From the NCBI GenBank assembly GCA_002372275.1, contig DFFP01000013.1, positions 15,603 to 79,602 of the forward strand: a DNA stretch of 64,000 nucleotides. Reading direction: 5' to 3'. Below, piece by piece: positions 15,050-54,082 of the stretch. The stretch's first letter is position 1; each line of letters starts with the position of its first letter. Under the pieces are notes generated by a model. That model was given only the letters and a program-made list of their open reading frames with translations. It searched no databases and was not told the origin of the DNA. The stretch comes from Alphaproteobacteria bacterium UBA3773. Lineage in GTDB: Bacteria; Pseudomonadota; Alphaproteobacteria; RF32; CAG-239. The position numbers were made by a program, and so were the translations under genes.

Positions 15050-16623
15050 GATAAACCGCCTTTCTTTTTATGTATAATACCCTTGATTTGTGAAACAGAT
15101 ACAACCTTAAATGACACAACCAAAATCATATAGCCCGCAAGCCCTATTGTACCTAAAACCGCTAATGCTAAAAACCTGACGATAAAACCTTTTTGCCAAA
15201 TTTCAAAAGCATTAAATAAATCATTTGCGATAAACACAACTCCACCCGCAATCACAGAAGCAAACGTAATTTTCAAAATTTGATTTAAAAGCGAACGTGA
15301 AAAATGCCATAAATTTTTTTTATAAAGCCCATAAATATATTGAAAGAGCGAAACAAACGCAGCAATGGTTGTGGCGGTTGCAATCCCAACATGCCCGAAC
15401 GGCTTCATTAAAATCAGATTAAAAATCACATTGACAGCAAAAACGATTGCACTGTATTTGACAGGCGTTACCGTATCCCCTCTTGCAAAAAAATTCGGCA
15501 TTAAGGCTTTCACAACGACATAACAGGGCAAACCGACGGCATAAGCAATGAGAGCATATGCCGTTTTTAGGGTATCCGTTTCGCTAAAGCGACCATGCTC
15601 AAAAAGCACATTCACAATCGGCGCTGCCAAAACAATCATCAACACGGCAAACGGCAGCGAGAGCAGCACAGCATATAAAACGGCTTTGTCTTCTGTTTTT
15701 TGACTTTCTTCCAAATTGCCTGATTTTAACTGCTTTGATAACACAGGAAGTAAGGCCACACTGATGGCTGCCCCGACAACACCTAAAGGCAATTGTTGCA
15801 AACGATTGGCATAATAAAGCCACGAAATCGCTCCCGTTCCGACAAGCGAAACCAAAATAGTGTCCACAGCCATATTGATTTGATAGATCCCTGCCCCTAC
15901 AACCCCGGGTGCAATCCGTTTGAAAAGCGTTTTGATATCCGGATTTGAAAAAATCTTTACAAAATGTCGATGCGGCGAAATTTTCACATCAATTTTATGT
16001 AAGGCATATTTCAGCCAAAAAATTTCTAAAATTCCGGCAAGTGTCACGGCTATTGAAAATCCGTATGCCGGCATCGGCATAAAAGGCGCAATCAAAAAAG
16101 CCGATAAAACAAGAGATAAGTTCAAAATAATCGGGGCTGAGGCCGGCGCGGCAAATTTTTCAAACGATTGCAAAACACCTGCCTGAAAAGATACAACCGA
16201 AATAAACAATAAAAACGGAAATGTAATGCGACAAAGCGTTGTGGCCAGCTCGATTTTGCCCTCATCTCCGATAAAACCGGGAGCCAAAACTTGAACCACA
16301 TAAGGCATCAAAAGCTCAAAACAAATCACAAAAATCAACAACAAGAAACTTAAGAGCGAAATTGTTTCAGAAGCAAAAAAAATCGCTTTTTTCTTTCCGT
16401 CTGTAACAAGTTTTTGCGAAAACATCGGCACAAAAGCACTCGTAAAAGCCCCTTCGGCAAACAGACTACGAAACAGATTCGGCAACTTAAACGACACAAA
16501 AAACGCATCTGAGGCCAGCCCTGCCCCCAAAAAATTGGCTAAAACCACATCACGCACAAATCCCGTCAAACGGCTGAGCAGTGTAAATCCGCCAAAAGTG
16601 GCCACCGATTTAAATAAAGACAT
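15046..16623 (-). CDS. murJ: Lipid II flippase MurJ (MviN)
   Basis: 525-aa polytopic protein with the MurJ N-terminal signature ...FVRD...A..LG......DAFFVSFKLPNLFRSLFAEGAFTSAFVP. Confidence 0.85.
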   Translation of the reverse strand: MSLFKSVATFGGFTLLSRLTGFVRDVVLANFLGAGLASDAFFVSFKLPNLFRSLFAEGAFTSAFVPMFSQKLVTDGKKKAIFFASETISLLSFLLLIFVICFELLMPYVVQVLAPGFIGDEGKIELATTLCRITFPFLLFISVVSFQAGVLQSFEKFAAPASAPIILNLSLVLSAFLIAPFMPMPAYGFSIAVTLAGILEIFWLKYALHKIDVKISPHRHFVKIFSNPDIKTLFKRIAPGVVGAGIYQINMAVDTILVSLVGTGAISWLYYANRLQQLPLGVVGAAISVALLPVLSKQLKSGNLEESQKTEDKAVLYAVLLSLPFAVLMIVLAAPIVNVLFEHGRFSETDTLKTAYALIAYAVGLPCYVVVKALMPNFFARGDTVTPVKYSAIVFAVNVIFNLILMKPFGHVGIATATTIAAFVSLFQYIYGLYKKNLWHFSRSLLNQILKITFASVIAGGVVFIANDLFNAFEIWQKGFIVRFLALAVLGTIGLAGYMILVVSFKVVSVSQIKGIIHKKKGGLS

Positions 16624-36609: not shown

Positions 36610-36688
36610 AGACAATAATAAAAAAAACATTTGACAATTTAGACAAATTATTTTATTCTATGGTCAGGTAAATATTTGGAGAATCCCC

Positions 36689-39600
36689 ATGGCAAATGAA
36701 CAAATGAGAAAATTTAACAGTAAAAATTTAGAAGAATATTTGGAAAACGCCGAAAATATTTTTAAGCACGGTTCGTCAGATGAGTTTGCAACCTCGCATG
36801 AACGCGCATTAGAGTATTTAGACGACTTTAATAACGGAAAATTAGATATTGATTTTGATGCAATTGATTCCATGGAGCGTTTTATTGAATATTTTGTCGG
36901 CGGATATAAAGTTGACAACCAAATGATGGCGCTTTACGATAAAGCTATGAAAAGATTAGAAGAATTGCGCAATGCGGCCAAACAGCAACAGCTTGAAGCA
37001 GAAAAGTCGGATTCTCAAGAAGAACTTCAAGCTCAAGAAGATAAAAAACAGCAAGAAAATGCAATTAAGGAAAATACTGAAGAGGTTGAAGTTGCCGATT
37101 TAACAAAGCTTTCAAATGAAAATCCTGAAGATCGCGCTAAAGTTGCACAAGTTCTCGAAGATCATCAAAAAGACTTTCCACTTGTTTATCAAAGTTTCGA
37201 AGAAATTTATCAAGATATTATCAAGGCCTATAAAACAGGCGAAGAAATTGATACACTTAACGATAAAATTCAAACAAAAGCTGACGCCGAAGCAGCACAG
37301 TTCGTGAAAAAAATTGTTGAAGAAAACACAGGCCATCAAGTTCCGACAATCAAAAAAACTTTGGTTATTGAAGACACTCATACTGATCAAGGTATTGATG
37401 ATAAGAAAATCAAAGATGTTGCCGAGCGCATTATAAATAACATAAAAGATACAAATAATCCTAAAGACGGCCGTCTTGATACCATTCAAAAAGAACTTTC
37501 AAGCTTAAATGGCGCTGAAATCGGTGCTCTTTATACCGAAATTGAAGGTAGAGATATTTCAACGAAGATTAAAGATAGATTGAAAACACAGTTATCTTAT
37601 CATTTAACAGAGAAGTTTTTAATCAAAAAAGAAGATCAAAAGCATACTTTTGAAGTTAGAGAAGATGTTGTTAATGCACTGTCTAATGAAGACGCAGCCG
37701 GTTATGTGACAGCTTTAGATATCGTGATGCAAAAGTCATATGATCAAAAGCGCCTTGATGACCTTTATGCCGCATTAAAACGCCGGGCAGAAGAGAAAGA
37801 ACAAACAAAAGTTTTAGATGATCTTTTAGGTCGTATTCGCAGTTTAAATTCGAATGCCAATGAAATCTTTTTAAATAGAGTTCGAATTGAAGCTTTACAT
37901 TCAATGAACAAAATTACGGATGCTGAAAGAACAGAGGCTTTACAAGATTCTCAAAAAGCAGCTCTATTGGTTGCCAATCACGAGTTAGAGCTTTCAGAAA
38001 ATCCGGCTGATCTTCAAACATATCGTGATTTTGTTTTTGATAAGTTGTTTGAAAATAAACAAACAAGAGATCTTGTACCACCGAAATATTTAGCCGCTAA
38101 ATATCTTGAATATGCTCAAAGAGCTGCCACAGAGCAGGATGTACAAAAAGTTCAAGAATATCAACAAAAGTGGCACGCTGTTGCAACCAGAATCCAAGAA
38201 TTAACGGATATGTTCGCCCGTGATGGACACCTGTCAAGGGATTTATATTTTGCTGATATCACCAACATAGCCGATATTTACGATGGATATATGGCCATGT
38301 TTGCCGCTGTTAAACCGGATTTAGAAGCTATGCTTCAAAATCCTCAAACAAAAGAAAGAGCAGAAGCAGATTTAAAGAAAATTGAAACATGCACTCAAAT
38401 TTTAGATGAACGAATCAAAGAATACGATGACGAATGGAATTTGACTCATTTACAAGAAACAGATGCTTTAGATGTTAATTCACGTATTGCCAAGATTCAA
38501 GATCAAATAAAAGACATTAAAGTCGATTCTGAAACCCTTAAACTTGCAAGTAATCTCAAATTCTTGGATGAAAACGGTAATATTGAACCTCAATTTATTG
38601 ATGAAAATGGTAACCAAACAGATGTATATTCCGAAGGTGCTAGGATTATTGAAGGAAGTAAACTTGATCAGCTCATCTATCTTTCCAAACAAGAAGTCAT
38701 TTCTAAAAATGCCGGTTCATCAGAAGAAATTACACCGGAATTTTTACAAAAAGAGCTTTCGGAAACTTTGGCCTCTTCTTTATATGCCATTCATGTTTCT
38801 GATCAAGTATCTAAAGGCGCTATAGAAAAAATTGATCAATTTACCAATAAAGATCATTTTGAAAAATTTAAAAATGATTTAGCGGACACTTCTCATCCGA
38901 TGAAGATCAGTCATCGAGGTTTTGAAGCCGGCAGATTTTCACTTGTTAATCGCTTGGATGCATATCGATCAAGGCTTACTCAAAAAATCGGACGCAATGC
39001 TCTGACAAATCGCGATGCGCATGCTGAAATGATTAAAAGAAAAGCCATGCAACTTGGTATGGCGCTTGGTGTGTCAACGGCCATCGGGCTTGTTTCCCTC
39101 GGAACAAACAAGGTTGTCGGTGCCGGTCTTGGTTGCGCACTGGGTGTAACGCTTTCAATTAAACAAATCCATAATTGGCGCAAACAACAAAAGGCCGAAG
39201 GAAAGCCTGCCGGTTTGAAAGAAATGTTTCATGATCGAAGACTTCGTCAAACAGTTGAAACGACAGCTTTAGCCGGTTGTGCCTTTGGCTTTTTAGCAAC
39301 AGGCAACCCTGATGTGGCCTTAGTTTTAGGAGGAGCCGCAATGGCAGTCGGATCAGTCAATGGCGCCATCTCTGATTATCAAGATGCCCAAAAAATGGGG
39401 ATGGGCAAAGGCTGGGCTGCCCTTTATGGCGCACTAGCGCCTATTATAACTGTCGGAGGAGGTCTTTTAGGCTCACAAGTTGTTGCACCGGGTATTGCAA
39501 ACTATGTTAACGAGCATTTTCCGAATAATACGATTTTCCAGCATAATGAGATCGTAGCTGGTGAAACGAAATCTATCAAAGTTGGAGAACGGACAACTAT

Positions 39601-41176
39601 AGATCAAGAAGCATTAGAAGCTGATTCTTCGCGTTATAACCAGCAATATGATATTGCCGGACGTCTTCATAACGGAATGACTCATGATCAGTATATGCAA
39701 GCCGTTGAAGAGTATAACCTCTCCCATCCGGATGCACCGATTACGCATCCTGATAATTTGTTACAACACGCATATAATGCAGAAAATGTTTATGGTCAGG
39801 GCTGGGCATCTGATCATGGTGTATCAATGACAGATATTAAAACATTGAGTCATTTAATTAATCCGGATGGTTCTATAAATCCTGATGCTGTCCAAGTATA
39901 TGAAAATGGTCAATTTATAAATCATGCCGGTTTAGAAAATTTTGTGGGAAAAGTATCTGATCCCAATATTGAACAAAGAGCTGATTTATATCCGACAAAA
40001 GATCCGCATTCAACCTATTCTGATATGAATCAACCGACAAAAACCGAAGCCATATACCGTGAAGTAACACCCATTGATCGTGTACCAGTGGCAAATCAAG
40101 GTCCTTTAATTATGGCAACTTTTGGCATATTAGATAGAGCCAAACAAAAATTAAGAAATACCAAAGAACGCATCGGCGCTTTGGCGGATATAGTTCTACG
40201 TCGCAAAAAAGACAAGCCTCGTCCCGGACCTCAACCGGTTATTGTTAATCCCCCACACGAGGATGACAATAAGAAGAAAAAGACTTATGTGACACCTGTC
40301 GTGACACAAATTGAAAAAGAACCGGTACATATTCTTCCCTCATCCCCGGCACCTCAACCTACTCCGGTCAAAGAAGATCCGAAACAGGCTCCAACGCCGA
40401 AACCTGAGCCATGGAAAGATAAATTATTGATTGATGAATATAAAATCGTCTATGGTATCGAACCGAAAGTTACTGCTTCTGAAGGTGAAAAGAGCCCTGC
40501 CGAGTTGTACTATGATCGTATTGAAAGTGAGCGTAAAGTTGAAGCTCCTGATTTATCCATGACCGACTATCTTTTAGCTCGTCGTGAAAAATTGGATAAA
40601 CTTGTTGCAACGATTGAAACTCAAGCAAACAATGCTTCTTTTGATCCGACAAAATGTAGAGCCGACTATATGACACGCAAAATAAAAGATCAAAGAGCCG
40701 GTGCAGAAATTGTTGCCAAATCGCGTCAAAGTCTGCAACAAAGTAATTTAACACATGAAAATTACAATCAAAAAGTTACTTTGACTCATTTCTTGAAATA
40801 TATGGAATATTATATTAAAGGGTCTGATGTTGTTGCTGATGGCTCTCGCGATATGACCTTAAATCCCGAGTTAAAACGTGATAATCGCGTAATTCACACA
40901 TATGATATCAATAAAATTTTGCTTGAAGGAAAAGATCCGAGTAGTGATGACAGTAAATTAACTGGCGATGCTCACATCACCTTTGGTGATATCAGAAGAA
41001 TCCATAACGAACGTACACGCGATGAAAAAATCGATGGTATCCATCCACCATTGACAAACGAAGTTGTCGCCAATTTTGCTAATCGCTTGGCAAAACTTGA
41101 TGAGGACAAAGCTAAAAATAACAGTCAGAGCGCTCAAGTTTCTGCTGGCAAAAAAAAAAGATACACGGGCCGATGA
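36689..41176 (+). CDS. Giant modular protein, N-terminal 1,495-aa segment (frame broken at an A10 tract)
   Basis: No signal peptide. Acidic coiled-coil-rich N-terminal ~800 aa, a Gly-rich hydrophobic region (~39040..39500), then the first ~180-aa C-terminal module. It terminates 16 nt after A10 at 41150..41159. Confidence 0.7.
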   Translation: MANEQMRKFNSKNLEEYLENAENIFKHGSSDEFATSHERALEYLDDFNNGKLDIDFDAIDSMERFIEYFVGGYKVDNQMMALYDKAMKRLEELRNAAKQQQLEAEKSDSQEELQAQEDKKQQENAIKENTEEVEVADLTKLSNENPEDRAKVAQVLEDHQKDFPLVYQSFEEIYQDIIKAYKTGEEIDTLNDKIQTKADAEAAQFVKKIVEENTGHQVPTIKKTLVIEDTHTDQGIDDKKIKDVAERIINNIKDTNNPKDGRLDTIQKELSSLNGAEIGALYTEIEGRDISTKIKDRLKTQLSYHLTEKFLIKKEDQKHTFEVREDVVNALSNEDAAGYVTALDIVMQKSYDQKRLDDLYAALKRRAEEKEQTKVLDDLLGRIRSLNSNANEIFLNRVRIEALHSMNKITDAERTEALQDSQKAALLVANHELELSENPADLQTYRDFVFDKLFENKQTRDLVPPKYLAAKYLEYAQRAATEQDVQKVQEYQQKWHAVATRIQELTDMFARDGHLSRDLYFADITNIADIYDGYMAMFAAVKPDLEAMLQNPQTKERAEADLKKIETCTQILDERIKEYDDEWNLTHLQETDALDVNSRIAKIQDQIKDIKVDSETLKLASNLKFLDENGNIEPQFIDENGNQTDVYSEGARIIEGSKLDQLIYLSKQEVISKNAGSSEEITPEFLQKELSETLASSLYAIHVSDQVSKGAIEKIDQFTNKDHFEKFKNDLADTSHPMKISHRGFEAGRFSLVNRLDAYRSRLTQKIGRNALTNRDAHAEMIKRKAMQLGMALGVSTAIGLVSLGTNKVVGAGLGCALGVTLSIKQIHNWRKQQKAEGKPAGLKEMFHDRRLRQTVETTALAGCAFGFLATGNPDVALVLGGAAMAVGSVNGAISDYQDAQKMGMGKGWAALYGALAPIITVGGGLLGSQVVAPGIANYVNEHFPNNTIFQHNEIVAGETKSIKVGERTTIDQEALEADSSRYNQQYDIAGRLHNGMTHDQYMQAVEEYNLSHPDAPITHPDNLLQHAYNAENVYGQGWASDHGVSMTDIKTLSHLINPDGSINPDAVQVYENGQFINHAGLENFVGKVSDPNIEQRADLYPTKDPHSTYSDMNQPTKTEAIYREVTPIDRVPVANQGPLIMATFGILDRAKQKLRNTKERIGALADIVLRRKKDKPRPGPQPVIVNPPHEDDNKKKKTYVTPVVTQIEKEPVHILPSSPAPQPTPVKEDPKQAPTPKPEPWKDKLLIDEYKIVYGIEPKVTASEGEKSPAELYYDRIESERKVEAPDLSMTDYLLARREKLDKLVATIETQANNASFDPTKCRADYMTRKIKDQRAGAEIVAKSRQSLQQSNLTHENYNQKVTLTHFLKYMEYYIKGSDVVADGSRDMTLNPELKRDNRVIHTYDINKILLEGKDPSSDDSKLTGDAHITFGDIRRIHNERTRDEKIDGIHPPLTNEVVANFANRLAKLDEDKAKNNSQSAQVSAGKKKRYTGR

Positions 41177-43565
41177 TACAACAAGGCAGAGGGCTGTAAA
41201 TCCCCCTGCCCCGAAACCTCAATCTCGAGGGGAAAAAGGCCTTACGGGTATAGCACCTGTTGAAAAACATGCTAAGCCTGAAGAACGTCGCGAACCCGTG
41301 ACACCTCCCGCACCGGTTCAAAAACCTAAAGAGGAAACAAGAGAAGCTCCAAAACCCGAGCCAACTGTTGTTGAAACAAGAGAAGCACCGAAACCTGAGA
41401 CAACTGTTGTTGAAACAAGAGAAGCACCGAAACCTGAGCCAAAAGTTGTTGAAACAAGAGAAGCACCGAAACTCGAGCCGAAAGTTGTTGAAACAAAAGA
41501 AGCGCCGAAACCTGAGCCTGTTTCAGAAACTCAGCTGTTCATTGACGAATATAAAACCGTCTACGGCGTCGAACCGAATTTCAAAGCGCCTAAAGGTGAA
41601 AAAAGCCCGGCAGAGTTGTACTATGATCGTGTTGAAAGTGAGCATCAACTTGAGGCTCCGAAACAATCGATGAGAGATTATCTGCTGGCTCGCCGCAAAG
41701 CATTGAATGACATCATCAAGGGTAATCCTCAATATGGTCAAACAAATGCTGAAATTATTGCAGCCGCTCGTCAAAGTTTGCTTCAGAGCAATTTAACAAC
41801 GGAAAATTATAACAATCGCCTGACTTTGTCTCACTTTACACGCTATATGACACTTTTCATTCATAGCGATGAAATTTTGGCTGACGGCTCACGCGATATG
41901 ACCTTAAATCCCGAGTTAAAACGTGATAATCGCGTAATTCACACATACGATATCAACAAGATTTTGTTTGAAGGAACGGATCCGAGAAGTGATGACAGTA
42001 AATTAACCGGCGATGCTCACATCACCTACGATGACATCAGAAGACTCCAAAATGAGCGCACACCTGAAGAAATAGAAAATGATTTTCATATTTCTCTGAC
42101 AAATGATGTTGTTGCAAATTTTGCCGAACGCTTTAAAGAACTTGATAAAGCTAAAGAAATTCAAGAAGCTGAACTCAAAGCAAAAGAAAAAGAAAAAGAA
42201 AAAGAAAAAGCTGAGACCGTGACACCTCCGATGCCGGTTCAAAAGCCTGAACCGAAAGAGAAAGAAGCTCCAAAACCCGAGCCGACCATTGTTGAAACAA
42301 AAAAAGCGCCGAAACCTCAATCTCAAGAAGAAAAAGGTCTCACCGGCGCGGCACCTATAACGGAATATGTCAAACCCGAGGAACACCATGAACCTGTTCA
42401 AAGCGTTCAAGATGAAAATAAATCTCTTCAAAATGAACCTTGGAACAATCCGTTATTGCTTCAAGAGTACGAAATCGTTTATGGTATTACGCCAAAAGTC
42501 ACTGCTTTAGAAGGTGAAAAGAGTCCTGCCGAATTGTACTATAAACGCGTTGCCAAAGAACGTTCTTTAGAAGGCTCACATCAATCAATCACGGATTATC
42601 TTTTAAGACGCCGTAAGAGATTGGATGAAATGGTTCAACTTTTAAAGCATCAACCAAACAATGCGACCTTTGACCCGAAAATCATGCTCGAGGATTACAG
42701 CGATCACTTAACGGGGCGCAAATCAGGTGGCAGAGCCGGTTCTGAGATTGTCACAAAAACGCGTCAAAGCCTTATGCAAAGTAATTTAACACCTGAAAAT
42801 TATGTCAAGCGTCTTACTTTGACACACTTTTTAAGATACATGAAACATTTTATTGAAGGTAATGAATTATTTTCTGACGGCTCACGTGATATGAGTTTGA
42901 ACCCAAGCTTAAAACGTAACTCAAATCACATATCGACTCATGATGTGAATGATGCCATTTTAAGCGGCAAAATTGAAAGAGCGCCAAAACGAGTAACAAA
43001 TGTAGTCATACATCGGCCCAAAAAAGAGCCTTGGAAAAATCCGTTATTGATGGAAGAATACAGAATCGTTTATGGTGTCGCTCCGAAAGCTGATTTAGAA
43101 CACTTAAAAGCTTACTGTAAACGTGTCATCAAAGAGCATCATAAAGAAGGCTTACACCGCTCAATGACAGAATATCTTTTAAGACGCCTCAGAAGGTTAG
43201 ACAGACTTGTAAAAGAAGTCAAAACGCAACCTAATAATGCTACTTTTGACCCTCAAGTAATGATCCAAGATTACAGCGATCACTTAACAGGTAAAAAAGC
43301 AGGCGGCCGAGCCGGTTCTGAAATTGTCATGAAAGCTCGCCAAAGCCTCATGCAAAGTAATCTGGCACCTGAAAATTACGTCAAGCGCTTTACTTTGACA
43401 CACTTTTTGAAGTACATAAAACACTTCATTGAAGGTAATGAGTTGGCCTCTGACAGCACGCGCAATATGAGTTTGAACCCTGACTTAAAACGTCGTTCAA
43501 ACACTATTCAAACACGTGATCTCAACGAAATCATTTTAGCGGAAAAATCTTCAAAAAGTAAATAA
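41064..43565 (+). CDS. Giant modular protein, C-terminal 833-aa segment (would be fused to the upstream ORF if A10 were A9)
   Basis: Overlaps the upstream ORF by 113 nt in another frame. Contains PKPEP/ETREAPKPEP linker repeats and three further ~180-aa modules homologous to module 1. Confidence 0.7.
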   Translation: MSPILLIAWQNLMRTKLKITVRALKFLLAKKKDTRADDTTRQRAVNPPAPKPQSRGEKGLTGIAPVEKHAKPEERREPVTPPAPVQKPKEETREAPKPEPTVVETREAPKPETTVVETREAPKPEPKVVETREAPKLEPKVVETKEAPKPEPVSETQLFIDEYKTVYGVEPNFKAPKGEKSPAELYYDRVESEHQLEAPKQSMRDYLLARRKALNDIIKGNPQYGQTNAEIIAAARQSLLQSNLTTENYNNRLTLSHFTRYMTLFIHSDEILADGSRDMTLNPELKRDNRVIHTYDINKILFEGTDPRSDDSKLTGDAHITYDDIRRLQNERTPEEIENDFHISLTNDVVANFAERFKELDKAKEIQEAELKAKEKEKEKEKAETVTPPMPVQKPEPKEKEAPKPEPTIVETKKAPKPQSQEEKGLTGAAPITEYVKPEEHHEPVQSVQDENKSLQNEPWNNPLLLQEYEIVYGITPKVTALEGEKSPAELYYKRVAKERSLEGSHQSITDYLLRRRKRLDEMVQLLKHQPNNATFDPKIMLEDYSDHLTGRKSGGRAGSEIVTKTRQSLMQSNLTPENYVKRLTLTHFLRYMKHFIEGNELFSDGSRDMSLNPSLKRNSNHISTHDVNDAILSGKIERAPKRVTNVVIHRPKKEPWKNPLLMEEYRIVYGVAPKADLEHLKAYCKRVIKEHHKEGLHRSMTEYLLRRLRRLDRLVKEVKTQPNNATFDPQVMIQDYSDHLTGKKAGGRAGSEIVMKARQSLMQSNLAPENYVKRFTLTHFLKYIKHFIEGNELASDSTRNMSLNPDLKRRSNTIQTRDLNEIILAEKSSKSK
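41150..41159 (+). repeat. Poly(A)10 homopolymeric tract at the frameshift site
   Basis: Ten consecutive A's. Deleting one A (or inserting two) joins the two ORFs into a single reading frame of about 2,290 codons. Confidence 0.9.
41338..41519 (+). repeat. 39-bp tandem repeat, about 4.7 copies (encodes ETREAPKPEP(T/K)VV)
   Basis: The unit agagaagcaccgaaacctgagccaaaagttgttgaaaca is repeated in tandem with minor variation. Confidence 0.85.
42181..42210 (+). repeat. (GAAAAA)n hexanucleotide tract encoding (KE)n
   Basis: gaaaaagaaaaagaaaaagaaaaag lying inside the coding sequence. Confidence 0.8.
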
Positions 43566-43579
43566 GTTAAAATGAATAA

Positions 43580-43608
43580 AAAAACCTCTCAAATGAGAGG
43601 TTTTTTTT
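43580..43608 (+). terminator. Rho-independent terminator after the giant gene
   Basis: Hairpin acctctc-aaatg-agaggt followed by T8. Confidence 0.75.
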
Positions 43609-45967: not shown

Positions 45968-47035
45968 ATGTCACGCGCGGAAGATATTTTTCAAAAACTG
46001 ATTTATTTTGGCGAAGATGCTTTAGATGAATTTATTGCCGAGCGGCAAACGGAAGAACTTTTTTTAGATTTTAAAGAAGCTGTTTCAGACGGCAAAAAGT
46101 TTAAAACACTTTATAAAGATGACAGACGCAATCTCGCCAAAGCAATTTCCGGATTCGGAAATTCGGAAGGCGGCGTTGTGGTATGGGGTGTTTCCTGCGC
46201 ACGTGACAAAGAAATCGGCGATGTTGCAAAAGCCAAAGTCAAGGTCAAAAATGTTCATCGTTTTTTAAGTTGGCTTGAAAATGCTATTTCAGGATGCACT
46301 ATTCCGAGTCACAACAAAGTTCGAAATCATATCATCAGTGTTGATGAAAACGGCGACGGATATGTGGCAACATATATTCCGAAATCTGATATTACCCCTC
46401 TCATGACCACGACTTCAAGCACCATATATATTCGCTCGGGCTCAAATAATGTGCCGGCTCCCTATGCGGTTATTGCCGGCATGTTCGGTAAGCGCCCGCA
46501 GCCGAATATTGATCTTTTGTTTGAAGATAAAACCTTAGAAATCATCGAAAATGTTGATGAAGATATTCTTTATCCGAAAACGATTGATAATCCGCCCGAT
46601 AAATATGTCAAAATCAGCTTTTCAATTATTGCTGACAATCAAAGCGACGCTATTGCCAAAGAGCTTTATTTTTCGGCAAATACATCAGAGACCGGCAGCG
46701 AATATAATAAAGTCCGCTTTTTGGGATATAACCAAATGGATTCGATTTCAAGTATTTCAGGACACTTTAATCTCATCACAAAACCGGAGCTTCGACTTCC
46801 GCCACGCGGAAAATTAAAGTTTACAACGGTGCAAATTATTTTATCCCCGTTTGCTGAAAGTGATTTTTGCTTTAATGGTGTGATAGGAGCTGAAAACGCA
46901 ATGCCGCGCGATTTCAGATTTTATTTATCCAAAAACGACCTGCGCTCATTTGTGGCTAAAGCACTCAAAAGCGAGGATGAAAGCCATATTTTACTTGCTG
47001 AATTTTTCTCTGACTTTTTAAGGGGAAACAATTAA
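45968..47035 (+). CDS. AlbA_2 / Schlafen-like putative DNA-binding domain protein
   Basis: N-terminal E...LDFKEAV....[19 protein letters not shown] pattern typical of the divergent AAA-4/AlbA_2 domain. The C-terminal ~220 aa has no recognizable domain. Confidence 0.55.
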
Positions 47036-47700: not shown

Positions 47701-48306
47701 ATGAAAATGAATAACATCAATGAAAAAGGTCGTTCAATGGTTGAAATGCTTGGCGTTTTGGCAATTATCGGTGTTTTGTCTGCCGGTGGTTTGGCTGGTT
47801 ACTCCAAAGCTATGTTCAAACATAAAATGAACACGACAATTGACCAAATCACAATGATTGTCACAAACATCCGTACACTTTACGGCACACAAGGCAATTA
47901 TGCCGGTTTGGACAATGGTATGGCTATTAAAGCCGGTATTATCCCGAATGCTATGTATACAGCCAATTCAGCAGGCACATACGCTTCAAATGCTTCTTTA
48001 GTCAATCCGTTTAAAGGTGGCGCAACAATTGCAACAGCTGAAGCAAAATCAGGTTTAGCAGATACAGCTTTTATAGTGACATACTCAAACTTGCCGTCTG
48101 AAGCATGCGTCCAAATCGCAACTTCTGACTTCGGTACAGGCGCAGGTTCCGGCTTTATCGGCTCAGGTGCTAAGAATACAGATGGCGCTACTGTAACCAC
48201 AATGGTTGGTGAAGGTAATGAAGGTAAACCGTTGGATTTAGCCACAGCTATTGCAAATTGTAATGGTGCCGGTACGGTTAACTCTGTTGCTTTGAAATTC
48301 TATTAA
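47701..48306 (+). CDS. Prepilin-type N-terminal cleavage/methylation domain protein (type IV pilin/pseudopilin-like)
   Basis: Leader MKMNNINEKG|RSMVEMLGVLAIIGVLSAGGLAGY: Gly at -1, Glu at +5 and a hydrophobic helix. The body is Gly/Ala/Thr-rich. Confidence 0.55.
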   Translation: MKMNNINEKGRSMVEMLGVLAIIGVLSAGGLAGYSKAMFKHKMNTTIDQITMIVTNIRTLYGTQGNYAGLDNGMAIKAGIIPNAMYTANSAGTYASNASLVNPFKGGATIATAEAKSGLADTAFIVTYSNLPSEACVQIATSDFGTGAGSGFIGSGAKNTDGATVTTMVGEGNEGKPLDLATAIANCNGAGTVNSVALKFY

Positions 48307-51760: not shown

Positions 51761-52299
51761 AAGAAAATGGTATAGGTGGTGCAAACACCAAGACAGGTTT
51801 GGTCTTTGAAGGAAAAACAGATTTGCAAACATTTTTATGTGGGCAAAAGGGATACTCATGCCAAACTAATAATTCAGGTTGGGTAGATGTCTTTTATAAC
51901 AAAGAACAAGTTGCTTCTATTTTTAAGAAAACAGCACTATATCGTTTTCTCGACAGTAGAAAGGTTGATTGGAAATCTATATTATCCAAAAAACTTTTGC
52001 CAGACGATTCTATTTATGTCGTCTGCAATAATACCTTTTTTGTTATAGAATGTAAATTTCAGAAAGTTGCAGGTTCTGTTGATGAAAAACTACAAACATG
52101 TGATTTTAAGAAAAAACAATATAAAAAGTTGTTGGCTCAACTTAATATGGAAGTAGAATATATATACTTATTGAGTGAGTGGTTTAAACAAAAACAATAT
52201 AAAGATGTTTTGGAGTATATTATTTCTGTTGGATGCTCTTATTACTTTGAATACATTCCGTTGAGCAAGTTTGGTTTACCTGTTCCTGAAAAAATATGA
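51757..52299 (+). CDS. Putative type II restriction endonuclease (PD-(D/E)xK)
   Basis: 180 aa with PDD...(15 aa)...IECK, matching the PD-(D/E)xK signature. Its ATG overlaps the MTase stop (ATGA). Specificity unknown. Confidence 0.5.
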   Translation: MKENGIGGANTKTGLVFEGKTDLQTFLCGQKGYSCQTNNSGWVDVFYNKEQVASIFKKTALYRFLDSRKVDWKSILSKKLLPDDSIYVVCNNTFFVIECKFQKVAGSVDEKLQTCDFKKKQYKKLLAQLNMEVEYIYLLSEWFKQKQYKDVLEYIISVGCSYYFEYIPLSKFGLPVPEKI

Positions 52300-52312
52300 A
52301 AGGAAAATTTAT

Positions 52313-53368
52313 ATGACAAAAGAATATAATTACAAGTTAACGAGTTATAATGCGAGTTTTAGCTTAAAAGAGTATACAGAAAGATATGCTGAAAAAAGTA
52401 TCTCTGATGAGGAAAATGTGCTCAAAATAGGTCGTTTCTTTGCACCAGCTTTTCAAAGAAATGCTGTTTGGACTGATAAAGCTAAAAGTAAGCTAATCGA
52501 AACTTTTTTAATTAAGTTACCTGTTCCTCCTGTTTTTTTATACAAAAATAGAAATGCTCAACATGAAATTATTGATGGTTATCAGAGAATTAAAACAATA
52601 TATGATTTTATGAAAAATAAGCTAAGGTTGGTAGGTTTAGATAGCTGTTACAACAAAAAAATCTTTGATGATTTATCAGAAATAGAAAAAGCTGACTTTG
52701 AAACAAAGATGTTAAATTGTGTTATCATAGAAAATATTGATGAAACAAGTGATAGAGATGCTTTATATGAAATTTTTGCGCGCCTAAATTCTGGGGGAAC
52801 AAATTTAAATAATATGGAGATTAGAAGAGCGATAGGTTGGGGCAGATTATTATTTGACATAGAAGAATTTAATAAAACTAGAGAATGGAAACTTTTATGG
52901 GGAGAAAAAACAGCAAATCGTTATGAGGATATAGAATTAATTTTAAGAATTCTGGCATTATCTGAAGTAGTATTTGATAAAGGAATGAGGGAATTTTTAA
53001 ATAATTATCTTGAAGACAATAAATATGCAGATAAGCGTGAAAAGTTAAATCTTCTGAAGAACTCCATTTTACTAATTTTAGAAAATTATAAATCTAATAA
53101 GCCTTTTCACAGCGAAAAAGGAACAAGAGTAAATTTTGCTCTTGCTGATTCTATTTTACCTGTGATAATGAATCATCCCGAAATTTCCAACATTTCTCAA
53201 AAACTTCATAAATTACTGGATAGAGATTTTGATAACTATTATAGTAGCGAGCTAGAAAAGGAACTTTGTAAAAATTTCCAAAGTATTTGTTTTAAAGGGC
53301 AAGGTTCTATATCGAAAAAAGCTGTTTGTGAACGTAGAAATATCGCTGAAAAGATTTTATTGTCATGA
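52313..53368 (+). CDS. DUF262 (ParB-like, DGQHR-motif) domain protein
   Basis: Conserved FQR...DGYQRI motif (the DGxQR of DUF262/GmrSD N-terminal domains). An RBS aagga immediately follows the REase stop, and the ATG at 52313 is preferred over the TTG at 52271. Confidence 0.7.
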   Translation: MTKEYNYKLTSYNASFSLKEYTERYAEKSISDEENVLKIGRFFAPAFQRNAVWTDKAKSKLIETFLIKLPVPPVFLYKNRNAQHEIIDGYQRIKTIYDFMKNKLRLVGLDSCYNKKIFDDLSEIEKADFETKMLNCVIIENIDETSDRDALYEIFARLNSGGTNLNNMEIRRAIGWGRLLFDIEEFNKTREWKLLWGEKTANRYEDIELILRILALSEVVFDKGMREFLNNYLEDNKYADKREKLNLLKNSILLILENYKSNKPFHSEKGTRVNFALADSILPVIMNHPEISNISQKLHKLLDRDFDNYYSSELEKELCKNFQSICFKGQGSISKKAVCERRNIAEKILLS

Positions 53369-53886
53369 TAGTATATCTAAAACAGACGGAAAAACTTTTT
53401 CTTTCTCTTAACGAGGAATATAAAAATTCAAAAGCTGCAGGTGTGTTGACAGTTGTAACTCCTACGGCATTTGTTTCTTTTTTAATTATTCGTCTATCGT
53501 GCGAATTCGAATATTATGTACATGACATTGTAATTAAAAAGTGGAAATCTGAAACAACTTCAACAAAATTACATAATTTTCTACAAAATAAAATAAAAAT
53601 TCGTTCCTCTAAAAGAGAGCAATTACGTAATAATTTAAAAGAATATTTTGTAGATATTGATAATATTGATATTTTGTTTACTGATGACAAAGGGAAAAAT
53701 TACTATGATAAGATATTTGGAAAGAAAAAGGATGAGACAGGAGAGAATAATATAAGAGACCAAATAGCACATTTGTTAAGTTTACAGTTTTCTCTGTTGC
53801 CTCAATGGGATGAAATGTATGATTATATCCAAATTTGTGATAATGCCTTACAAAATATTGAAGCGAATTTGGATTTTAAGATGTAA
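53365..53886 (+). CDS. HEPN-like protein (Rx4H motif), possibly of the MAE_28990/MAE_18760-like family
   Basis: The start overlaps the DUF262 stop (ATGA). All-helical, with a C-terminal ...NNIRDQIAHLL (R-x4-H) motif. The family assignment is made from memory. Confidence 0.45.
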   Translation: MIVYLKQTEKLFLSLNEEYKNSKAAGVLTVVTPTAFVSFLIIRLSCEFEYYVHDIVIKKWKSETTSTKLHNFLQNKIKIRSSKREQLRNNLKEYFVDIDNIDILFTDDKGKNYYDKIFGKKKDETGENNIRDQIAHLLSLQFSLLPQWDEMYDYIQICDNALQNIEANLDFKM

Positions 53887-53899
53887 AAATAATCTTAAG

Positions 53900-53919
53900 A
53901 CCATGTGGACAGTATATGT
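53900..53919. repeat. Right 20-bp terminal inverted repeat of the defence cassette
   Basis: accatgtggacagtatatgt; its reverse complement acatatactgtccacatggt matches the left repeat at 19 of 20 positions. Confidence 0.75.
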
Positions 53920-54082
53920 CATTGTTTTTGAAATAAAAAAAGTACGTGGCTGGTATCTTCAGTTTGGGTGTTCACAATGGTTGCGAAACTGCGACCAAGT
54001 GGTATAACTAATTGAAATAGAATAATTTTTTAACCGTCAAAAAATGGTATCTTTTTCCTGATTTAGGGGTAGTTTGCACGAC

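Follow-up and report, generated by a model that had tools for sequence, protein, structure and literature searches.

The stretch of DNA analyzed here (64,000 nucleotides [nt], positions 15,603 to 79,602 of contig DFFP01000013.1 of Alphaproteobacteria bacterium UBA3773; hereafter, the window) carries a giant gene that ends in four related modules, M1 to M4. M1 closes a 1495-amino-acid (aa) open reading frame (ORF1), and M2 to M4 follow in the +1 frame (ORF2), behind a run of 10 adenines (A10). The locus raises the question of whether these two frames represent one gene or two, and of what the homopolymer between them does. Comparison with a sister species shows that they form a single gene. We further propose that this gene encodes an envelope protein with an amplified, concertedly evolving head, and that the poly-A tract toggles between one-head and four-head products. 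This fuller reading is about evenly poised between being right and wrong.

The original prediction described four tandem C-terminal modules of approximately 180 aa with a shared consensus. A protein alignment, together with DNA self-repeat families (D1, D2, D4, and D5) that recover the same register, bears out four homologous modules spanning positions 40409 to 43562, with pairwise amino acid identities of 50 to 62%. The predicted module starts differ by only a few bases from the in-frame coordinates. Relative to M1, the identity equals 62% for M2, 55% for M3, and 50% for M4, and 51 alignment columns are invariant. The proposed length fits M3 and M4 (about 180 to 196 aa) but not M1 (240 aa) and M2 (217 aa), which carry an additional tail of approximately 60 aa. 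The consensus holds overall, with three qualifications: the GEKSPAELYY block is missing in M4, the NA(S/T)FDP element (within an NNA(S/T)FDP segment) is missing in M2 through a deletion also present in its ortholog, and GSRDM(T/S)LNP reads STRNMSLNP in M4. What does not stand as written is the placement of all four modules at the end of one annotated protein, because the stop codon at 41174 to 41176 and the frame change at the A10 run separate M1 from M2 to M4.

Downstream of A10, the ORF1 frame continues as AGA TAC ACG GGC CGA TGA. No other homopolymer in the window reaches this length; four further runs have at least 9 nt, and all of them lie outside every ORF of at least 150 aa. Deleting one A from the tract yields a single open frame of 2291 codons, and a tract of A9 or A12 would fuse ORF1 with the ORF2 frame into a 2291-aa protein. 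The second frame is open from 41064 to 43565. ORF2 runs for approximately 800 codons without a stop, and no stops or indels occur in the 2.4 kb downstream of the frameshift. On the initiation side, a GGAG sequence lies 8 nt ahead of the ATG of ORF1. ORF2 has no credible independent start and no start codon that would preserve M2; in its public gene call (P0011, 649 aa), a TTG within M2 is taken as the start. No terminator-like site was found between ORF1 and ORF2 on the + strand.

Searches with ORF1 matched only ORF1 itself (P0009) and P0010, a 2245-aa protein with 79% amino acid identity to ORF1 that is encoded by one uninterrupted ORF and contains four modules. The P0010 gene is syntenic with the window gene, with the same neighbors from SIMPL to the pilin gene. 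The shared upstream genes are SIMPL, BrkB, RecA, PcnB-like, IalB, RlmN, bPH_2, MlaC, MlaA, and DegT, and the shared downstream genes are DUF378, a DJ-1-like gene, an M16 peptidase, Schlafen/AlbA_2, RNase H, and the type IVb pilin. At the site of the A10 run, the ortholog contains an in-frame A12, which is found in both sister-species assemblies. The P0010 junction AGKKKKATQDDPTRQ aligns with the window sequence AGKKK/DTRADDTTRQ across the frame change (slash), and the longer junction ...PAGKKKKATQDDPTRQ... matches ...SAGKKK/DTRADDTTRQ... when the window is read across the same point. ORF1 and ORF2 are thus one gene: the ortholog is a single ORF, the junctions align at A12, the 2291-codon frame is open, a terminator is present only after M4, and ORF2 lacks a start of its own.

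The downstream modules have not decayed. At a synonymous divergence (dS) from the ortholog of about 0.5, with dS saturated for M3, the ratio of nonsynonymous to synonymous substitution rates (dN/dS) equals 0.28 for M2, 0.09 for M3, and 0.18 for M4, next to 0.17 for the ORF1 core. These low ratios, together with the absence of stops over the length of ORF2, show that M2 to M4 are under purifying selection and have been constrained during most, if not all, of the period following the species split.

To reconstruct the history of the array, the window modules (W1 to W4) were aligned with those of the ortholog (O1 to O4) and with seven single-module relatives. W2/O2, W3/O3, and W4/O4 form one-to-one orthologous pairs, shared indels included, with nucleotide identities of 80%, 72%, and 86%, respectively (core, 86.5%). 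Because W2 to W4 are each orthologous to O2 to O4, the quadruplication is older than the species split: amplification to four modules took place in an ancestor that this organism shares with one sister species. The paralogs are old copies, and dS between pairs of them runs from 0.94 to above 3.

Superimposed on this divergence are patches of unusual similarity between M1 and its neighbors. The original prediction gave 93% nucleotide identity between M1 and M2 over 145 nt. The value is 134/145 (92.4%), in a register shifted by one base: positions 40841 to 40985 align with 41886 to 42030 (offset, 1045) and not with 41885 to 42029, where the identity drops to 24.8%. A 56-nt perfect match was likewise confirmed (40847 to 40902), and none of 20,000 codon-column shuffles gave a run as long (maximum, 50; P ≤ 5e-5). 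At third codon positions, the identity amounts to 18/20 and 15/20 inside the tract versus about 10/20 elsewhere, and synonymous sites have been homogenized. The 201 nt around the tract contain 14 sites at which W1 and W2 agree with each other but not with O2, and throughout the 56-nt core W1 equals W2, with O2 deviating. For the segment from DGSRD to DIRR, the identities are 90.9% for W1-W2, 35.5% for W1-O1, and 89.7% for W2-O2. In the N-terminal segment, W1-W2 (73.5%) and W1-W3 (70.1%) exceed W2-O2 (58.9%) and W3-O3 (67.4%), respectively, and the GEKSPAELYY block is common to W1 through W3 and present in neither O2 nor O3. Postspeciation gene conversion is well supported, and the M1/M2 patch postdates the split from the sister species. 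The earlier description of this conversion as recent fits the patches only, as the paralogs are old.

The first module is of a different kind in the two species. O1 (P0010 residues 1256 to 1450) belongs to a second conserved subtype, type B (MFQTN...QDLPRNQMTLQKFT...TAAHDN), which lacks the RQSLxQSNL and GSRDxSLNP motifs of the canonical type A. Type B is the sole module in the relative L022 and occurs twice in the relative P0054. An interpretation of O1 as a degenerate copy was rejected, since the type is conserved in both. From the nearest relatives, the ancestral M1 type (A or B) is ambiguous. The subtype difference implies that the first head was swapped between closely related species (ortholog locus L017 14315).

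Which kind of protein carries these modules? As the original prediction suggested, the module matches nothing catalogued. Searches of Pfam, NCBIfam, PHROGs, and PADLOC with ORF1, ORF2, single modules, and six relatives gave nothing above threshold, apart from one summed ORF2 score that is discussed below; only subthreshold noise was returned (DUF5681, Snf7, PrsA, and PD-T4-1). PDB sequence searches with the module profile and ORF1 gave no match. In Foldseek searches, neither the module model (against PDB and the BFVD models of viral proteins) nor an 860-residue core model (against PDB) yielded a match at an E value below 0.9. Three candidate identities were considered by visual inspection and dropped. 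A HEPN-like Rx4H motif (KRLTLTH) fails because neither M1 nor the relatives conserve its Arg. The H...DGSR residues of a Fic-like motif are not contiguous and lack a supporting fold match. For a polymorphic-toxin array (contact-dependent inhibition [CDI] or Rhs type, with orphan C-terminal [CT] modules), the modules are mutually homologous (50 to 62%), lie adjacent in one frame without ORFs between them, and are not accompanied by immunity ORFs.

In the AlphaFold2 (AF2) model of M1 (mf2d269ad219c), residues 1 to 140 are all-helical, with a predicted local distance difference test score (pLDDT) of about 90, and the module model comprises seven to eight helices. The ADGSRDxSLNP motif falls in a low-confidence, probably flexible stretch. 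ORF1 as a whole shows no signal peptide and consists, in order, of an acidic helical N terminus, a helical domain, five Gly/Ala-rich membrane helices, an alpha/beta domain, a basic amphipathic segment, a Pro-rich spacer, and M1. The conserved helical domain (aa 381 to 770; residues 1 to 390 of the core model) is predicted with a pLDDT above 90. The 390-residue domain and the 140-residue head core thus constitute confident predictions without a Foldseek match in PDB or BFVD. A short hydrophobic strand precedes the basic amphipathic segment (consensus KKLKxRxGALxDKI), which leads into the spacer. This architecture is constant in the family, with variation in the N-terminal acidic region and in the spacer repeat type; Pro-rich spacers occur in all relatives, with PKPEP-, PEPK-, PVVE-, and TPAP-type repeats across the window and its relatives.

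The five predicted membrane helices appear as long helices in the AF2 core model, and their flanking charges are distributed asymmetrically. Across 34 relatives, the mean number of Lys plus Arg residues equals 11.1 in the part preceding helix 1, 7.6 in the segment joining helices 2 and 3, and 3.1 in the one joining helices 4 and 5, compared with means of 0.6 and 0.2 for the two short loops; the stretch past helix 5 carries a net negative charge. Following the positive-inside rule, the N-terminal 780 residues would be cytoplasmic and the part beyond helix 5 would lie outside, suggesting an N-in/C-out topology.

The module has a narrow distribution. Its profile matched eight proteins in a word-indexed set of 5.8 billion proteins and gave 60 matches (E ≤ 1e-3) among 1.84 billion representative sequences that were read exhaustively. 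The expectation that it would occur at the C termini of diverse secreted effectors was contradicted: all 60 matches belong essentially to one family of polytopic membrane proteins of 1000 to 1800 aa. The module is thus an end-domain specific to this family rather than a portable unit. Four matched stretches occur only in the window/ortholog gene pair among these 60 representatives, and two are found in a few, including P0054 (1838 aa), whose two tandem type-B modules are an independent duplication. A scan of one genome per species retrieved 15 loci, each with one module approximately 110 residues from the end of an ORF of 1000 to 1630 aa. They come from metagenome-assembled genomes of uncultured Alphaproteobacteria of human (Hadza, BRZ) and deer gut, together with two labeled Azospirillaceae. 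A scan of JGI metagenomes with the M2 profile added three distant single-module loci only. This giant membrane-protein family is so far known only from uncultured gut and rumen Alphaproteobacteria. The analysis defines an uncatalogued protein family and a new C-terminal domain, represented by about 60 sequences from gut and rumen alphaproteobacterial metagenomes. The individual phenomena at the locus are of known kinds; the protein family is uncharacterized and the domain undescribed.

Some observations concern the surroundings of other family members. No neighbor conserved with the window was found in the flanks of the distant relatives. In one clade of eight (L002 to L008 and L011; e.g., L002 1421 to 10323), the family gene and a partner ORF of 545 to 680 aa that is translationally coupled to it are both placed on the opposite strand, flanked by dnaJ and dnaK. 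The partner lacks any annotation or Pfam match, contains a conserved C-terminal block of approximately 150 aa, and is absent from the window; the pair looks like a two-gene cassette inserted in the dnaK-dnaJ operon. L013, L015, and L016 have a second family paralog at the locus start on the minus strand, approximately 5 kb upstream of the first and on the other strand from it, so that some genomes hold at least two copies. Around residues 90 to 140, P0054 has an extension weakly resembling RamC_N or an OspF-type lyase (E = 0.0098; 15.8 bits, below the cutoff).

Taken together, we propose the following scheme. The slippage-prone tract marks the exact border between the ancestral product and the extension with its three extra heads. 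Normal decoding of A10 reaches the stop five codons after the tract and yields the canonical one-head protein of 1495 aa, whereas the loss of one A or the gain of two would give the four-head protein of 2291 aa. The route could be RNA polymerase slippage, giving mRNAs with 9 or 12 A's, or replication slippage in the DNA, and the joined frame would contain the junction peptide ...SAGKKKDTRADD... (or its KKKK version). In the sister species, with A12 in frame, the four-head protein is encoded directly, and the default would be reversed. By analogy with known slippage sites, both products would be made, and the tract would act as an isoform or phase switch. With its N-terminal part in the cytoplasm and five helices crossing the membrane, the protein would hold its head or heads in the periplasm or beyond by means of the Pro-rich spacers; the charge distribution and the TonB/TolA-like (Glu/Lys)-Pro spacers hint at an envelope-spanning tether with a helical head. 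The conserved polar motifs RQSLxQSNL and ADGSRDxSLNP may bind a partner in the envelope or outside the cell. The head copies are old and individually constrained, but conversion homogenizes patches, such as the M1/M2 tract and the GEKSPAELYY block, which M1 to M3 have in common in this lineage only.

This scheme has precedents. An A11 run in tssM1 of Citrobacter rodentium gives rise to mRNAs with 10 to 15 A's, and both length variants are required (Gueguen et al. 2014, PMC4256274). Slippage has likewise been shown for Thermus thermophilus dnaX (A9) and Shigella mxiE (Baranov et al. 2005, PMC1088944). The window gene resembles tssM1 and dnaX in having at least nine A's inside a large envelope-protein gene, an early zero-frame stop, a long conserved extension in the other frame, and an uninterrupted gene in close relatives. 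It differs in that slippage was demonstrated there and we infer it here, in that the required shift is −1 or +2 A's, and in that the extension comprises three copies of an upstream domain instead of a unique essential domain; the families are unrelated. If the switch is real, it would add a case beyond tssM from the T6SS (type VI secretion system) and dnaX, in which the stoichiometry between an envelope protein's two length variants is set by polymerase slippage. Automatic annotation splits this homopolymer-interrupted gene, which may be decoded by slippage, into a 1495-aa protein and a 649-aa fragment that starts inside the domain. The locus also offers a clean natural case in which a domain was amplified and its copies then evolved in concert, and the ortholog places these events in time.

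With regard to the encoded protein, TonB and TolA provide a close parallel in design: an anchor without a cleaved signal peptide, rigid (Glu/Lys)-Pro spacers, and a C-terminal globular head. In contrast to their single anchor helix, the window protein has five predicted membrane helices and a putative cytoplasmic domain of approximately 780 aa. Its head is all-helical and has no TonB_C or TolA_III match in Pfam, NCBIfam, or PDB sequence searches, and no ExbBD or TolQR genes are adjacent; the sole TonB-type Pfam signal is TonB_N at E = 0.6 in one family member. As in the contingency loci of host-adapted bacteria, where homopolymers vary in phase and repeats occur within genes, one putative envelope gene combines an in-ORF homopolymer (A10 versus A12), a 39-nt variable-number tandem repeat (VNTR), a hexanucleotide microsatellite, and conversion between repeats. 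Unlike in those loci, no length variation within a population was observed, and surface exposure is putative.

A stronger version of this proposal would regard the tract as a conserved, selected recoding or phase-switch site that sets the ratio of the two forms, with the downstream heads serving in addition as a conversion reservoir to diversify the head that faces host, phage, or partner. We consider this version doubtful. If true, uncultured gut Alphaproteobacteria would possess a variable envelope organelle of a new kind, based on a domain without detectable relatives in sequence or fold.

Several points weigh against the proposed envelope switch. Conservation of an uninterrupted A run as a signal of selection did not reach significance, and because AAA accounts for 75 to 83% of the Lys codons in the giant gene, such a run speaks only weakly for selection. 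Within neither species did the tract vary in length, as all three assemblies of the window sequence read A10 and both of the sister species read A12; the difference between the species (A10 versus A12) is to be read within the limits of sample independence. The membrane helices are moderately hydrophobic (mean Kyte-Doolittle values of 0.6 to 1.3; pLDDT of about 50 to 77), and the fifth, on which the C-out orientation depends, is the weakest. The searches described above turned up neither a partner nor a fold relative nor a conserved neighbor that would give a functional handle. Finally, the two further deposited assemblies with A10, L001 (ERZ12302850) and L019 (ERZ28612945), equal the window sequence exactly outside the 39-nt repeat array, so that all three may share one sample, and one of the A10 contigs has a k-mer coverage of only about 8, according to its name. 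A consensus error in the homopolymer is therefore possible.

Such an error is the most serious alternative, although an unlikely one: the true tract would be A9 or A12, and the locus would harbor an ordinary, intact gene of approximately 2290 aa without any switch. The intact A12 ortholog and the fully functional appearance of M2 to M4 fit this view, and the identical A10 assemblies, one of them with low coverage, may derive from the same reads. Assembly is also difficult in this region: 350 nt downstream there are a contig end and an N-gap. The two other A10 assemblies break in the 39-nt repeat, one by ending and one by an N-gap, and contain an extra variant unit, ETKETQKPEPKVV. The copy number of this repeat is uncertain and possibly variable, and the 4.7 copies in the window may be an underestimate. 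The frame is unaffected, as each unit equals 13 codons. The (AAAGAA)5.7 microsatellite is a second slippage-prone repeat in the gene whose unit length keeps the frame. Against a miscall, three separately deposited assemblies agree on A10. One-base consensus errors in a 10-mer are uncommon with short reads.

Rather improbable is a recent pseudogenization, in which a fixed frameshift has cut off M2 to M4, now untranslated and bound to decay, and returned the protein to its ancestral one-head form. The ORF1 product does have the one-head architecture of all other family members, and ORF2 has no start codon of its own. Yet the 2.4 kb beyond the tract is free of stops and indels, and dN/dS values of 0.09 to 0.28 at a dS of about 0.5 reveal constraint for most of the time since the split, so that such an event could only be very recent. 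An A10 run would, moreover, be expected to give some in-frame mRNA.

A third alternative, which we regard as quite improbable, treats ORF1 as an expression site and M2 to M4 as promoterless, silent donor cassettes that mainly serve to rewrite M1 through segmental conversion, similar to pilE/pilS or msp2. M1 is indeed mosaic in structure: it shares 91% identity with M2 in its 3' part, is nearer in its 5' part to M2 and M3 (73.5% and 70.1%) than these are to their own orthologs (58.9% and 67.4%), and resembles single-module relatives in its middle part. The type-B first module of the sister species indicates that this position is exchangeable. In that species, however, all four modules are translated in one ORF, and just one or two conversion patches are visible in the window.

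The original prediction raised the possibility of a delivery or host-binding domain, and a C-terminal translocation signal or effector domain resembling the BID domain of alphaproteobacterial type IV secretion substrates would be the nearest analogy for delivery; we judge it very unlikely. BID domains occur in tandem arrays, with four BIDs in BepG, and BID crystal structures have been described (PMC6509941). As in the Bartonella effectors BepF and BepG, a C-terminal helical domain (about 100 to 180 aa) of an alphaproteobacterial host has been amplified into a linker-joined array of diverging tandem copies. The module tails are short and of mixed charge with several Lys and Arg residues (KSSKSK, HRPKKE, and, in relatives, ...KKNAERKSSRE), and one distant relative has the weak OspF/RamC_N-like N-terminal extension. 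On the other hand, the module model has seven to eight helices instead of a four-helix bundle, and the Foldseek search against PDB gave nothing at E < 1 and no BID among the matches listed, with the presence of BID structures in the library left unchecked. The module was found on no other kind of protein, and its carrier is polytopic, with five membrane helices; no type IV secretion genes were seen among the shared neighbors (17 loci with flanks of about 10 kb). Lastly, a MOV10-type helicase helical domain (Pfam PF21635, Mov-10_helical), which precomputed annotation lists as "faint" for P0010 and P0011, was rejected as barely credible: the whole-ORF2 score of 31.3 bits (cutoff, 24.8), the summed score mentioned above, is the same weak 42-residue match (42/67 model positions) added up over three modules, the best single module reaches only 15.5 bits (E = 0.031), only 1 of 12 family members matches, and neither ORF1 nor ORF2 nor any of six relatives contains a helicase core.

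The features of the giant gene are listed in Table 1.

Table 1. Features of the giant gene, in coordinates of the 64,000-nt window
Feature	Position	Strand	Description
Promoter-like TTGACA-17-TATTCT	36631-36659	+	30 nt upstream of ORF1 start; from consensus scan, not above shuffle expectation
ORF1	36689-41176	+	1495 aa; identical protein present in ENA/NCBI assemblies
Predicted membrane region	39044-39499	+	aa 786-937; two Gly-zipper-like helical hairpins plus a fifth helix; from hydropathy, AF2, and charge
Pro-rich spacer	40277-40408	+	Precedes M1; from translation
M1	40409-41128	+	240 aa; type A, canonical, mosaic; ends ORF1
Conversion tract, M1 side	40841-40985	+	Perfect core at 40847-40902
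A10 homopolymer	41150-41159	+	M1/M2 boundary
ORF2 (+1-frame continuation)	41160-43565	+	Order: spacer, M2, spacer, M3, M4, stop
ORF1 stop codon (TGA)	41174-41176	+	Five codons (15 nt) past the end of the A run
39-nt tandem repeat (13 codons)	41334-41518	+	4.7 copies of ETREAPKPEPKVV units; M1-M2 spacer
M2	41517-42167	+	217 aa; orthologous to P0010 module 2, GNPQYGQ deletion common to both
Conversion tract, M2 side	41886-42030	+	Partner of 40841-40985
(AAAGAA)5.7 microsatellite	42177-42210	+	Encodes (KE)n; M2-M3 spacer
M3	42438-43025	+	196 aa
M4	43026-43562	+	179 aa; stop codon 43563-43565 directly after
Terminator-like palindromic GC stem	43578-43607	.	Flanked by an A run and a T run; bidirectional; only strong such site in the unit

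The terminator-like site behind M4 is a perfect palindrome with A7 and T8 arms and is common to the giant gene and the convergent DUF378 gene. Further downstream, a Schlafen AlbA_2-domain protein (45968 to 47035; E = 3e-10) is encoded between the M16 peptidase and RNase H genes. The type IVb pilin gene (47701 to 48306), located 4 kb downstream of the giant gene, is identified by matches to PilS_N (6.4e-17) and Bundlin (4.7e-14) and by its N-methylation motif, and it is conserved in the ortholog locus. The region from 52001 to 54000 has a GC content of 0.288, compared to about 0.37 elsewhere, as well as a strongly positive GC skew, and is probably a horizontally variable polysaccharide locus. 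In the ortholog locus, the pilin and AP-endonuclease genes are followed downstream by glycosyltransferase and rml (dTDP-rhamnose) genes.

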